DNA from: a virus
Lineage: Duplodnaviria > Heunggongvirae > Uroviricota > Caudoviricetes
Length of the DNA: 18,717 nucleotides
Virus record (IMG/VR): IMGVR_UViG_2703718806_000010
Location: 1-18,717 of that record
Direction: 5' to 3' (one strand)
Positions 6,001 to 12,000 of the stretch are shown in pieces (the first letter of the stretch is position 1; the number at the start of each line of letters is the position of its first letter). The position numbers were made by a program.

Positions 6001-9000
6001 GATTAAGTTCTTTCACTTTATATGTCCTTTTTTTAAGGCCTATGGTGCTGTTATATCTGGCATGAAACTGAATTGTCTGAATATCAAGTTGAGGGGTTAG
6101 AGTTCATGTGCCATCTGGTCATTTTCGGCGCATTGCTTACTGCAATATTGCCGCTCTTCGGTTACGGGGATTGTGCCTTTCATAAAATGAAGATGACTTT
6201 TAACGGATTTGGTTTGTTCGGTTTCCTTATTGCAGAGATGGTAGGCACATTTTATTTTTACATTTATCACCATGACTCCGCTTTTACAGGTAAACCATCA
6301 CGTCCGAGGAAGACTTTAATCATGCAATCGGTAATGCATGTTTTTGTCGTGAAGTTACGAATATAGAGTTTTCTCTTTTCAATATTGTTTGCTGAAGCGA
6401 TATATGTGCGGCCTTCATGAAGAACATAATCGCCAGGTGTCACGCACTGACGTGGTATTTCATCAGTTCCGAAGTGATGAGCAATCATAATTATCTCCAT
6501 TTTCACAAATGAATTTTGTTGATGTGGTGCCTGGTGCCTCCAGGTGACGTTAACCAGTTAACAATTAACGCCGGAGCAGGGGATGATGATTTTCCGTGAC
6601 ATCCTGTCGGTTTAACTGTTCCGCGTGCGCATAGCCGCATTCACCGCATCATAAAATTCACTTTAAAAAAGGGCGGACATCAGCAATCGGCAAACCGATG
6701 TCCGCCAAAGAGGATATTGATACATGGATGTTGCAGCGGGGTTGTCACTCAGGCGTCTGGGGCGATTTCCATTATTTACGATGCACTTGAAACATTCCTT
6801 GATCGAAAACTTTCATCTGTCACCGACGGAACATCGAGTAAGCAATAACATTTAACACACACTCTAAATAACAAGGGGTGGGCTTGATGCCGTTCTTTTC
6901 AAGCTCACTCGTAATCACCTCCAGAAGTCGTGCGCCCATGAGAATTGTCTTGTGGGATGAAGCTATTACGCCGTCGCTGATATTGCTGTTTATTTCTATT
7001 GCTTCATTTTCACCATTCGCGCTAACTTCGGATATGTTATTTTCACTCTCCTGTTTCAGTGCTTTTTCTGCCATCCGGATGCGTTCCTGCGTTGCGGAGT
7101 TTGGGCTAAGTCGATAAACCTGTCTGGCATCTTCCAGAAGCAGGGCGATAATGTGCTTCAGTTCTGTTTCGTTCATAGTTAACTCCGGTAGTTGCAATTT
7201 ATTAATATCAGGCGGTCAGCTCTTTAAGCTTCTGAACTGCTTTATTCATTTCATCCATACAGTCGATGAATTCGTCCAGTTTAAGCTGCATTTTTCCGGC
7301 GGCCTGAAGAATTTCAAGTTTTAAGGGCGCAAGTTTTTTGTTGAATACATCATCTTCCTGGCGTTTTTTCTCCGCAATTTCGGCGGCTTTCAGCAATTCT
7401 TCCGCCTGCTTTCTGAGTATTTCTGGTGAAGGTGAAACTGCTTTTAGGTTATTCATTTCAGGTTCCTGTTGTTGCAGAATTAATTTGTTGCATTCTCTGC
7501 GTGAGCGTTTCATTGCAGATTCGCACTTCTTGCAATAAATGGCTCTCCCGTCACGTTTGCTTGCATCTGAATAAAAATCATCGACTGATTTTGTCTGCCC
7601 GCATTTGGTACATAATTTTGATTGAAGGTCCTTAATGATTGTGACGTTTCCTTCCCGTTTGGGATATCCATATTTTTTGTGGCGGAAAAAGGTTACTCCG
7701 TTACCAGAACCTTCTTTTCTGACCTTAAATACAATGATGCTTTCCCGTTTATCGATAAAATCGATGAGCTGGTTTCTCTCTTTTCCTGACAGTTCGGCAA
7801 ACGTCTTAACTTTTTTTGTAACCTCCGTAAGGCGAACACCATCAGGCATTTTTTCAACGAAGTTTTTAATCTCTGCAAGCGGACGCCATAATTTTTGCGG
7901 CAAAACTGAAGGCGTGGTCATCAATCACCTCGCTGTTATTATTCCTGATTTGCGATAGCCAGCTGCGTAAAGTGCAGTGTTTGGAAGACAAGTAGAGCCT
8001 TCATATTTTCTGGTTAATGTCGTTATCGTGACTACTTCAGCTCGCATTGCGGCTTTGCGTTTGCACTGTAAGTACACCCGTGAAGGTGTGGGGCGGTGCA
8101 GTTTATCAGCGCTTGATGCCTCCAGACCCTGAAACTCGGCCCTGCGTGCTCTGCGGCGGGAAGCTGCGGTGCCTTTAAATTCTGTTTTTCTGGACATAGA
8201 TTTCCCCCGAATAAACTTTGGCGATGCAATCTCGAAGCCTCCCCTGAGATGATTGCTTCGGCATTGCACCCGACAGCTTATGCGGTTGGGCGATCTGGCT
8301 TTGCAGCCACGTAGTCGAGTGTTCGACGTTGTTTAAAGAGCTTTCCAATTGGGGCCGCGTTGTTATCGGTGACCTGTTGGCAAAATGATTATTAACTGCT
8401 GGTTAGCGTTAGTCAATAACCAAAAGTTAAAATTATTGTGGGAGAATTCTATGTTTTTGATTTTTAGTTAATTATTATTGCTTGTTCGGTGAGCGACGGT
8501 TATCAAGTATGAAGGGGTATAGAAGCTAGGATAGATGAGTTTTGGCTAGCTGGGTTAATAAAAACCCGGCTCTGAGGCCGGGGGGAGAGGGGCTAAAGCA
8601 GAACTGAATACCAGAAAACTTTTCCGATAATCTCCACGCTTTGAGTATCTGCTTCTTCGTCAGGGTACTCTTCACTGTTATAACTGCGTATGATTAGCTT
8701 TCCACCGGGGCGTCTGTACAATAGTTTTATACGCTTCAGTTTTTCATCACCGACACCAGGCTGTGCGATGGCGTAGAGTTTGCCGTCAACAATACGTTTG
8801 TTGTTTGTGTCTACTGCGATTGTTGTTCCATCTGGTATCACGGGCTCCATGCTATCACCAGTAGCCGGAAAACAAAGCACACCAGAACCATCACTGTTAG
8901 CTCCGACACGGCGCAGGGTTGCTTTTGAGAAGCGTAATTTAAAACCATTATGATCTTCGCAATGAACTCTTCCGTCACCGCATGCAAACTCAATGTCTTT

Positions 9001-12000
9001 CAGATATGGCACCTCAACTTCATCATCTCGTAGTGGTGTATTTCTGTCCCAAGTTTCAAGGGAACCCCATTCTGATTCGTTTGGAATTGAAGGTCGCTGT
9101 TTTACGGATGGCTCGTTACTGCCATACTCCAACCACTCCGGCTTCACGGAAAGCCAGTCACTAAGTGCCAAAATACTTGTTTTTTCTGGAATTGATGCAG
9201 AATTAAGCCATTTCCAGATCCCCGGTTCAGAGATATCAATGCCTCGCAGTTTCATTGCATTCTGAATCCGCTTAGCCTGACCGCGTCCGCCCACGCCTGC
9301 ATCTAATAATGCCTGTAGTAGTCTCTTTGAGAACGCTTCTTTTAGTTCATCTTTTTTAACCATACGTTAATTATCAAACATAGTTGACATAACTGTCAGC
9401 TAATAGTTAACATTAACTCGAAGTTAACTAAATTAATGGATAGCAGTATGAATCCGATACAATTCGCAGTAAAAGCTGTTGGTGGTCAAACAGTCGCTGC
9501 CCGTTTATGCGGGTTGTCAAATGTTGCAATTCATAAGTGGGTTAAAAACGGAGCGTTACCTCGCACCGAATACACGATGAAAACCAACTATTCGGAAATT
9601 CTCGCCAATGCATCTGATGGCAAATTTACCGCCGAATGGTTACGCAATGTAGCGAATCCTGATCGTCAACGATAAGCTCAATTAACACTGCTCTTTTCAC
9701 AATGGACATTCGTCCTACGTCGCTGAAAAGCGAGCCCCAAGATATCTGACCAACTAAGGCCATATGCGTTTCCACGCATACCTTTCAACTAACTATTCAC
9801 TATTTGGAATCATAAGAAATGTCACAAACAAGTTACAGCAAACTGTCGCAGCGCGATATCGATCGCGCTGAAACGGATTTACTTATCAACCTGTCAGCTC
9901 TGACGCAAAGGGGACTGGCGAAGATGATTGGCTGCCATGAATCGAAGGTCAGTCGTACCGACTGGCGATACATCGCGGCGATTTTATGTGCGTTCCAGAT
10001 GGCATCTGATATCAGTCCGATCAGCCGGGCTTTCCAGCATGCCATTAACGTTCATGCAAATAAAAAACGTCCGGTTGGGGCCGGACGTTCTGAGCAAATC
10101 CTGATGAATATCTGATATTCAGGCAGGGCATGGAGCAATACACGGGAATAATTCTGCCACATCTGGAAGAATTTCGCCAGCAACAACACCAACCGCAGCA
10201 GCCTGAAGCCGATTGGGTTAACCCGGAGATACCGGGACCGTCTGTGAAGATGTGCAGTCACACCAATGTGCAGTCACACCAACCGCAGCAGCCTGAAGCC
10301 GATTGGGTTAACCCGGGAGATACCGGGACCGTCTGCGGTATGGAGTAAATCTTGTATGCGAGGGGACTATGCGTAATTACGCAACAATTTCACCTCAGTT
10401 CTGGTTAGGCGATACAGGGCGAAAACTAAGGAAGTCTGGTCCGGAATGTATGGTAGTGGCGTTGTATATGATGACCTCGCCTCATTCCAATATGCTGGGC
10501 CTTTATTACCTGCCTGTTTTGTACATTGCTCACGAAACCGGACTTGATCCTGAAGGGGCTTCTAAGGGGCTTCAAATGGCTTGCGAGGCTGGTTTTTGCA
10601 GCTATGACCATGATTCTGAGGTTGTATGGGTGCATGAAATGGCAGCATGGCAGGTTGGTGAATCGCTGAAACCTGGCGATAACCGTTGTGCTGGGGTAAG
10701 AAATGAATATTCCGCGTTGCTGGAAAATCCTTTTTTATCATCATTTTATGATAGATATAAGGATGATTTCCACCTGGATGTCAGACGTGAATCATGTCGG
10801 AAAATTGAAGCCCCTTCAGAGCCCCTTTCAAGCCAAGAACAGGAACAGGAACAGGAAAGAGATAAAACCCTTCTGGTCCATGGCGAAAAAATCGCCACGG
10901 ATCCACTGGTGGATTCTTGTCCCGTTCTGACTGAACGTCCAGGACCAGCTGGCATGACACCGGAAGCAGATTCCGGGCGTTGTGTGCAGCAGGTGCTGCT
11001 CGTCGAACCGGAGCAACAACACCAACCGCAGCAGCCTGAAGCCGATTCCGCGATGAGCGGGAAGCCGATTGGGTTAACCCGGGCGATGCCGGGACCGTCT
11101 GCGGGACGAGTTGATTATCCTGACGTGTTCGAACGGGTCTGGCGTGAATATCCGCATCGGGCAGGGTCAAACCCGAAGAAATCCGCGTTCAATGCCTGGA
11201 GGGCCAGATTACGCGAAGGGGTGTCACCGGATGTCGTGCTGGATGGCGTGAGGCGTTACGCAAGATACCTGGAGGCTACCGGGAAAGCGGGAACTGAATT
11301 TGTTCAGCAGGCATCGACGTTTTTTGGCCCGAACAGGAATTTCGAAAATCCGTGGTCGCTGCCGAAGGCTGGCGCAGTCAGTCTGCGTTGCGTGAATCAC
11401 ATTTCTGAACCGGACACCGAAATTCCGCCGGGTTTCAGGGGGTAATCAGCCATGAAAAACATTTCGACAGGAGGGATTCTTGAACGGGTGCGCCGTCTGG
11501 CACCACCGCACGTGGCAGCACCGTTCCGGACGACCGACGAATGGCGGGAATGGCAACTGGCTGAGGGCCGGAAGCGCAGCGAGGAAGTTAACCGCCAGAA
11601 TCACCAGACGCGGGTTGAAAAAATCCTGAATCGTTCGGGCATCCAGCCGCTTCACAGGAAGTGCTCATTCGGGAACTACCGGGTGCAGAACGACGGTCAG
11701 CGCCATGCTCTGAGTCAGGCAAAATCCATCGCGGCAGAACTGCATACCGGCTGCACGAATTTCGTGTTCAGCGGTAAACCTGGCACCGGGAAAAATCACC
11801 TTGCAGCAGCGATTGGCAACTGGCTGATGGCGAAGGGGAGAAGCGTGATTATCGTCACCGTGTCCGATGTCATGAGTGTGTTGCATGACGGCTACGACAA
11901 CGGCAAGTCTGGTGAGAAATTTTTACAGGAACTTTGTGGGGTAGACCTTCTGGTCCTTGATGAAATTGGCATGCAGCGGGATACGCGCAACGAGCAGGTC

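Follow-up and report, generated by a model that had tools for sequence, protein, structure and literature searches.

Predicted nut sites with two hairpins and a GNRA-tetraloop boxB in a lambdoid, Shiga toxin phage-type prophage, and their association with one subtype of the N protein

In phage lambda, the N-utilization (nut) sites consist of a boxA (CGCUCUUA) located 5' of a single hairpin, boxB, in which a 5-bp stem with a U-A closing pair carries a pentaloop (GAAGA or GAAAA) with a GNRA-type fold, the two elements being separated by a linear spacer of 8-9 nucleotides (nt). The nutR site of phage H-19B contains two hairpins, consistent with RNase T1 probing; the H-19B N protein, together with NusA/G, shields both the spacer and boxB, Rho binds the spacer, where the footprints of Rho and NusA both fall, and the nutR/tR1 region has been the subject of work on Rho termination (PMC3526286). 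The spacer dyad of H-19B was dissected genetically by Neely & Friedman 2000 (Mol Microbiol 38:1074), a reference listed in PMC3202840. Here we analyze the two nut sites, nutL and nutR, of an 18,717-nt stretch of DNA from a tailed virus (Duplodnaviria; Heunggongvirae; Uroviricota; Caudoviricetes), which corresponds to positions 1 to 18,717 of the IMG/VR record IMGVR_UViG_2703718806_000010 and is hereafter referred to as the window. Both sites display the two-hairpin layout of H-19B, but their boxB elements carry tetraloops rather than pentaloops, and this loop type strictly co-occurs with one subtype of the arginine-rich motif (ARM) of N.

Direct reading of positions 7600-10400 shows that both sites had been quoted exactly in a preliminary description of the window: nutL, running from 8342 to 8296 on the minus strand, is AGCTCTTTAAACAA-C-GTCGAACACTCGAC-TACG-TGGCTGCAAAGCCA, and nutR, at 9690-9733 on the plus strand, is GCTCTTTTCACAA-T-GGACATTCGTCC-TACG-TCGCTGAAAAGCGA. 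From 5' to 3', nutL comprises a boxA (GCUCUUUAAACAA; 8329..8341), a spacer hairpin, hairpin 1 (GUCGA-acac-UCGAC; 8314..8327), a single-stranded UACG linker (8310..8313) and boxB, or hairpin 2, in which the 5-bp stem UGGCU/AGCCA closes a GCAA tetraloop (8296..8309). The nutR site follows the same order, with a boxA (GCUCUUUUCACAA; 9690..9702), hairpin 1 (GGAC-auuc-GUCC; 9704..9715), the UACG linker (9716..9719) and boxB with the 5-bp stem UCGCU/AGCGA and a GAAA tetraloop (9720..9733). As in lambda, the closing pair of the boxB stem is U-A, and the minimum free energy (MFE) fold of each site contains both hairpins, in agreement with the reading. The placement of the sites relative to pL/N and cro/cII is also that of lambda: nutL lies 46 nt 3' of the -10 hexamer of a pL-like promoter and 98 nt 5' of the N start codon, whereas nutR is located between cro and cII, beginning 15 nt past the cro stop codon and finishing 85 nt before cII. 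This location within the pL and pR transcripts, next to the N gene, bears out the earlier identification of the elements as nut sites. Considering their positions and sequences, the homology to H-19B nutR and the covariation and ARM/loop association detailed below, nutL and nutR are very probably the N-utilization sites of a lambdoid prophage of the Shiga toxin (Stx) phage type, with hairpin 2 as a GNRA-tetraloop boxB.

The H-19B sites (AF034975) share the order boxA, spacer hairpin, UACG, boxB with those of the window, nutR being GCUAUUUUCACAA-U-GGACAUUCGUCC-UACG-UCGCU GACAA AGCGA and nutL ...GAUUCgaauauGAAUC-UACG-GCGCU GACAA AGCGC. The similarity is closest at nutR, where the two phages have essentially the same spacer hairpin (GGACAUUCGUCC), linker, boxB stem (UCGCU/AGCGA) and tR1 region; the entire interval from nutR to cII aligns nearly base for base, and the salient difference is the extra loop C of H-19B (GACAA versus GAAA). 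Thus, the architecture with two hairpins is not new, having been known from the NUT of the H-19B type. The phages nonetheless differ consistently in loop type, with GACAA pentaloops in H-19B and GAAA and GCAA tetraloops in the window, as well as in their N proteins, which belong to one Pfam family and have a common C-terminal CLPNxALYAAGYRK motif but comprise 127 aa with the ARM RRRERLKAKALANG in H-19B and 90 aa with the ARM RRRARRAEFQG in the window. Furthermore, the boxA of the H-19B-type nutL is degenerate (GGUGAAUAUACAA; 2750-2804, minus strand, in locus L002), whereas the window and all tetraloop-type phages keep the GCUCUUU core at both nut sites. In H-19B, boxB is reportedly needed for function, whereas boxA, NusB and S10 are not; the conserved boxA at both nut sites of the window suggests that, unlike in H-19B, NusB/S10 may be involved. 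Lacking both the GACAA loop and the RRRERLK motif that characterize the H-19B specificity group, the nut sites of the window belong to a sister subtype outside that group.

A closer counterpart is VT2-Sakai (Sp5, AP000422), which has the N subtype, two-hairpin layout and tetraloop boxB of the window. Its nut features are annotated as 'putative N-utilization leftward/rightward', without comment on structure, and no functional study of them was found in our literature search. The two are not identical, however: in nutL of VT2-Sakai, the loops of hairpin 1 and boxB are cuc and GAAA, compared with acac and GCAA in the window, and the cI/cro immunity regions differ. The N protein of the window shares 84% identity with its VT2-Sakai counterpart and 37% with that of H-19B, and a homologue in the Stx phage POCJ13 is annotated as N. 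The Stx phages POCJ13, 75/02 Stx and phiSTEC1589-Stx1c match the window at 98.5-98.7% identity across the immunity region.

To place the sites in a broader context, ~225 loci were collected with relatives of N (those of the window and of H-19B, plus two short ones that are more distant); a search of genome contigs with N gave only three loci and was of little use. A covariance model comprising boxA, hairpin 1, UACG and hairpin 2 was trained on 32 distinct nut sites. In the window, the model matched nutR with 65.7 bits (9688-9737, plus strand) and nutL with 62.2 bits (8343-8292, minus strand), with E-values of ~1e-14, and no third nut-like site was found there, the next score being 8.8 bits with filters off. 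All 142 matches obtained in 80 representative loci fell at nutL or nutR positions, never at a third site. By contrast, lambda and the loci with lambda-like or P22-like N gave no match (best score, 10 bits), and the lambda nut sequences themselves differ, in line with the earlier remark that the sites are unlike the single boxB pentaloop of lambda. The linker is UACG in most relatives; it is CACG in a few nutR sites, which a two-hairpin regular-expression scan had missed (an ascertainment bias) and the covariance model recovered, and UACAA in one locus, L207. The CACG linker was observed in nutR of L169, L172, L205, L206, L222 and L223.

Base pairing was assessed on a model-based re-alignment of 70 distinct nut sites from the 80 representative loci, rather than on a MAFFT alignment, in which the additional base of the pentaloops was misaligned. 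Standard pairs occupied 94.9% of the cells, against 72.4% after shuffling, and none of 500 shuffles reached the observed value; the covariation score was 0.492 compared with 0.097 in the shuffles, and sliding the 3' partners by 1-3 columns reduced pairing to 26-50%. In helix 1, double-sided changes occur at four of the five pairs, and the stem is found as GUCGA/UCGAC, GGUGA/UCACC, GGCGA/UUGCC, GAUUC(G)/(U)GAAUC and GGAC/GUCC, and in the extended forms GGACG/CGUCC and GGACA/UGUCC, around loops of 3-7 nt with unrelated sequences (cuc, acac, auuc, uggau, gaauau). Helix 2, the boxB stem, is 98.9% paired with double changes at two pairs, and occurs as UGGCU/AGCCA, UCGCU/AGCGA, AGGCU/AGCCU, GCGCU/AGCGC, UGGCC/GGCCA and UCGCC/GGCGA. 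The difference between TGGCT/AGCCA in nutL and TCGCT/AGCGA in nutR, which had been put forward as a compensatory pair change, is indeed one, although it amounts to ~1 event separating the nutL and nutR lineages: across the family, the second pair of helix 2 is CG in 41 sites and GC in 29, a split that mostly follows the two lineages. Both helices covary in a way that preserves pairing, the opposite of what had been named as refuting a real RNA structure, and that proposal holds. It is this comparative evidence, not the folding energy, that is decisive for the two-hairpin structure.

The same data bear on the notions that the inverted repeats function as DNA, whether as terminators or as palindromes bound by a protein, or that they arose by chance. 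A simple scan does label the plus-strand complement of nutL hairpin 1 (8314-8327) terminator-like; this stretch is the palindromic complement of the hairpin together with the T-rich complement of boxA, and the label is most likely a scan artefact. The G.U pairs (GGCGA/UUGCC; GGGC/GUCC) are confined to the transcribed strand, which argues for an RNA rather than a DNA structure, and the covariation keeps pairing, not sequence. Moreover, neither hairpin is followed by a U-tract on the transcribed strand, and the E-values of ~1e-14, with no other matches in the window, argue against chance. We therefore rejected the DNA palindrome, the terminator and the chance match, and regard any of them as scarcely credible.

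Between the end of GCUCUUU and boxB lie 25 nt in nutL and 23 nt in nutR, compared with the 8-9 nt of the linear lambda spacer. Hairpin 1 takes up 14 and 12 of these, respectively, which leaves 11 unpaired nt at both sites, made up of the ACAAY-type and UACG flanks, the most conserved positions. These lengths fit the 'reducer' model that Neely and Friedman reportedly put forward for H-19B, in which the hairpin draws the flanking sequences together; disrupting one arm of the dyad is said to inactivate the site, and compensatory changes to rescue it. The main task of hairpin 1 might instead be to modulate how Rho or NusA reach the rut/spacer stretch of nutR-tR1, or how the RNA is processed or stabilized, considering that both proteins footprint on the H-19B nutR spacer (PMC3526286) and that the ACAAY and UACG flanks are better conserved than the hairpin itself. 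However, hairpin 1 is equally conserved at nutL, which has no tR1-like terminator directly 3', and its loop varies freely in length and sequence, contrary to what sequence-specific recognition would entail. We consider such a main role improbable, and it would be compatible with the spacing model rather than exclusive of it. That hairpin 1 is a second N-binding element (a dual boxB), or even the true boxB, is suggested by its being a conserved stem-loop adjoining boxB; its loops, however, are not GNRA-like, its stems are swapped wholesale without a matching change in the ARM, and the ARM subtype tracks the loop of hairpin 2 only. In H-19B, moreover, boxB is reportedly required while the dyad can be deleted (Neely & Friedman 2000). 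This candidate was rejected and appears very improbable; only hairpin 2 is boxB.

The ARM of the window N, FKGTAASRRRARRAEFQG, spans residues 7-24 and has the core SRRRARRA. It had been described as distinct, and this stands insofar as its subtype strictly co-occurs with the tetraloop; it is not foreign, however, but close to the ARMs of H-19B and P22 (F-x-G-[NT]-x-x-[ST]-RRR), from which it differs in the C-terminal half; compared with the H-19B subtype, it lacks seven residues in length. In lambda, the ARM (MDAQTRRRERRAEKQ type) is of another subtype. Among 215 loci in which ARM and loop were tallied, there were no exceptions: in the 134 loci (~50 distinct N proteins) with an RRR-x-[RH]-R-A ARM, such as SRRRARRAEFQG or ARRRERRAHLQS, the boxB loops of nutL and nutR are GAAA or GCAA only, whereas the 81 loci with an RRRERLK[AS].A[LI] ARM have GACAA only. 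The description of the loops as GNRA-type is thereby corroborated, as the four-base loop varies solely at the N position (A or C) throughout the 134 loci. In all 173 loci where both nut sites were seen, the nutR loop fits the ARM type.

Two natural chimeras separate the ARM from the remainder of the protein. L176 (IMGVR_UViG_2843263547_000006) encodes a short N body with an RLK ARM bearing the 7-residue extension, and both of its nut sites have pentaloops (UGGCC GACAA GGCCA and UCGCC GACAA GGCGA), although L173, L174 and other tetraloop relatives have exactly its boxA and spacer hairpins; three changes (U->C, +C, A->G) thus took place in parallel at both sites, ~2.5 kb apart. Conversely, in L207 (IMGVR_UViG_3300029844_000048), a long, H-19B-like body is joined to an RRA ARM, and the loop of either nut site is GAAA. 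Thus, it is the ARM, not the body of N, that tracks the loop type. The nut sites of L207 also have a 4-bp boxB stem alongside their UACAA linker. Fusions of a further kind were observed in P0035 and P0038, in which an N with a P22-like N-terminus (e.g. FAGNAKTRRHERRRKLAIERD) is joined to an H-19B/Sakai-type C-terminus (CLPNTALYAAGYRKSGTITAR), which again speaks for a modular exchange of ARMs.

To our knowledge, in every N-boxB pair with a characterized structure, a base is looped out of a penta- or hexaloop. The N protein of P22 has an ARM of the same general form as that of the window (F-x-G-N-x-x-T-RR-x-x-R), and the boxB stem of P22, GCGCU/AGCGC, is that of H-19B nutL; its loop folds as a GNRA loop, the type predicted for the window, but the third base of the pentaloop, a C looped out onto the peptide, is absent from the window tetraloops. 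According to PMC12550061, this C of GACAA is looped out in the P22 N-boxB complex (PDB 1A4T; Cai et al. 1998) and contacts Arg11 and His7. In an ungapped alignment anchored on F-x-G, the position of P22 Arg11 is Lys in H-19B and L176 and Ala in every tetraloop-type ARM, which would be consistent with the loss of a contact to the absent loop C. The resemblance to P22 does not extend to the spacer, as the P22-type nut at L224 is without a spacer hairpin. Searches of PDB sequences with the window N and the P22-like ARM gave no matches, the peptides being too short.

Several considerations weigh against the interpretation developed here. The thermodynamic signal by itself is weak, with modest z-scores of -2.1 and -2.25 for the 44-47 nt cores and of about -1.2 once flanks are included; among 200 shuffles, 5-32 fold equally well. 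The pair counts come from an alignment that was itself fitted to the structure of the model, the sequences are related because N homologues guided the sampling of loci, and the independent events are few, with ~5 stem types in helix 1 and 3-4 in helix 2. The spacer dyad of H-19B can reportedly be deleted with little effect, such that hairpin 1 may be dispensable. The residue-level argument hangs on the ungapped ARM alignment, and MAFFT sets the 7-aa indel elsewhere. Finally, the N protein and nut sites of the window are known here from sequence alone.

The ARM/loop association likewise represents perhaps two or three independent switches, and physical linkage could partly explain it for nutL, which lies ~100 nt upstream of the ARM codons and is co-inherited with them. 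It is thus conceivable that the difference between tetraloop and pentaloop is neutral, with either ARM binding either loop and the association reflecting co-inherited ancestral modules; the N peptides of lambda and P22 reportedly tolerate GNRA tetraloop or altered pentaloop variants in vitro, in work associated with Legault, Cocozaki/Smith and Roberts. Yet nutR is located 1.5-3.3 kb away, across a highly mosaic immunity region, and matches the ARM without exception. Moreover, the three-change conversion in L176 left the contexts of both nut sites otherwise unchanged, and nutR of the window and of H-19B differ essentially by the loop C over ~130 nt of near-identity. Neutrality is therefore unlikely, albeit the most serious of the competing explanations. 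Whether a widespread sub-family of lambdoid N proteins uses a natural GNRA-tetraloop boxB, its specificity being set by a swappable C-terminal half of the ARM (RRAxLQS versus RLKAKALANGVLAR), appears to us evenly poised.

The mechanism we propose goes beyond these observations, in that the binding of N, the use of Nus factors, a role of hairpin 1 in spacing and the residues behind loop specificity are all inferred. Transcripts beginning at pL and pR would offer, in the nascent RNA, a linear boxA, presumably to NusB/S10. The short spacer hairpin, conserved in its stem but not in sequence, would then remove 12-14 nt and juxtapose ACAAY and UACG, ahead of a boxB whose 5-bp stem is predicted to close a true GNRA tetraloop. 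The arginine-rich helix at the N-terminus of N (90 aa) would bind boxB, the conserved C-terminus (CLPNxALYAAGYRK) would presumably engage RNA polymerase, as in other N proteins, and the rest of N, with NusA and other Nus factors, would render the polymerase termination-resistant, allowing read-through of tR1 and of the leftward terminators. In effect, the 4-nt loop is the GACAA pentaloop of P22 and H-19B reduced to its GNRA core by the absence of the looped-out C, matched by the RRRxRRA subtype of the ARM.

The immunity region of the window has the classical lambdoid layout, with cI/cro flanked by nutL and nutR. On the minus strand, a pL-like sigma-70 promoter (8388..8416; TTGACT, 17 nt, AATAAT; 10/12 consensus matches), at a position matching the annotated pL of VT2-Sakai, would drive a leftward transcript that carries nutL and N, judging from the consensus scan and gene order. 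The N gene (7925..8197, minus strand; 90 aa) was identified by translation and belongs to Pfam PF25694 N_peptide (E = 1.9e-25). The cI gene occupies 8593-9363 on the minus strand, and just 3' of it lies a strong intrinsic terminator-like hairpin (CCCGGCcucagaGCCGGG) with a U-tract (8565-8582, minus strand), which fits the end of a pRM/cI transcript, as in the VT2-Sakai annotation. On the plus strand, the consensus scan placed a pR-like promoter (9384..9413; TTGACA, 18 nt, TAACAT) upstream of a cro-like open reading frame (ORF; 9436-9675), the POCJ13 counterpart of which is annotated as a transcriptional repressor. The interval between nutR and cII (9734..9818), a tR1-like (Rho-dependent terminator) region nearly identical to those of H-19B and VT2-Sakai, contains the hairpin AUGCGU-uucc-ACGCAU (9764-9779) and is annotated in VT2-Sakai as 'putative rho dependent terminator for pR transcript'; cII follows at 9819-10115. 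Between cII and an O-like gene, a small ORF (10130-10348) encloses a perfect 41-nt direct repeat (10186-10226 and 10276-10316; spacing, 90 nt), the copies of which reach ~59 nt, ending near 10244 and 10335, if one indel is allowed. An Rfam search of the whole window at gathering thresholds yielded no match to a nut or boxB family and only sRNA-Xcc1 (RF02221), with two matches ~580 nt apart on the plus strand, 3' of the replication genes (15409-15492, 79.3 bits; 15985-16068, 75.7 bits).

The N-nutL module is widespread: among 5426 complete E. coli genomes, 763 (about 14%) contain it at >=80% identity, O157 Sakai Sp5 included. A 3.5-kb contig (L004; JAJXBQ010000280.1) of a metagenome-assembled genome assigned to Segatella copri also carries nutL and nutR of the Sakai type next to an N of the E. 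coli type (82% identical), and is probably a mis-binned prophage fragment from Enterobacterales. The sites of the window are an ordinary, functional-looking and expected nut pair of a known phage type; modestly new is the less-described part, namely, a true GNRA-tetraloop boxB strictly tied to one ARM subtype. We found no description of a natural 4-nt boxB in the searchable full-text literature, although a prior description in the subscription literature is possible, and the papers examined on mEpimmI and epsilon34 do not address a natural tetraloop boxB or the nut structure of Stx phages.

The N-boxB interaction is a textbook model of peptide-RNA recognition and a common tethering tool. A natural tetraloop-specific ARM, if borne out, would provide a clean system for studying how an arginine-rich helix reads loop size, with the chimeras pointing to the residues involved, and the tetraloop N/boxB might supply an orthogonal tethering pair. 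In lambda, the extruded loop base, the fourth of the pentaloop, has been implicated in NusA assembly, not in N binding; if that role is right, the tetraloop lineage does without this contact, and a looped-out base thought to be important for assembly of the lambda complex would be dispensable there. The degenerate nutL boxA of H-19B, as opposed to the intact boxA of the tetraloop type, may mean that the two differ in their dependence on NusB/S10. If the C-terminal half of the ARM does set specificity, a one-base indel in the loop and an ARM swap would suffice to create a new antitermination specificity group, and the group to which many Stx prophages belong would bear on cross-activation of early and, ultimately, toxin genes between co-resident prophages.

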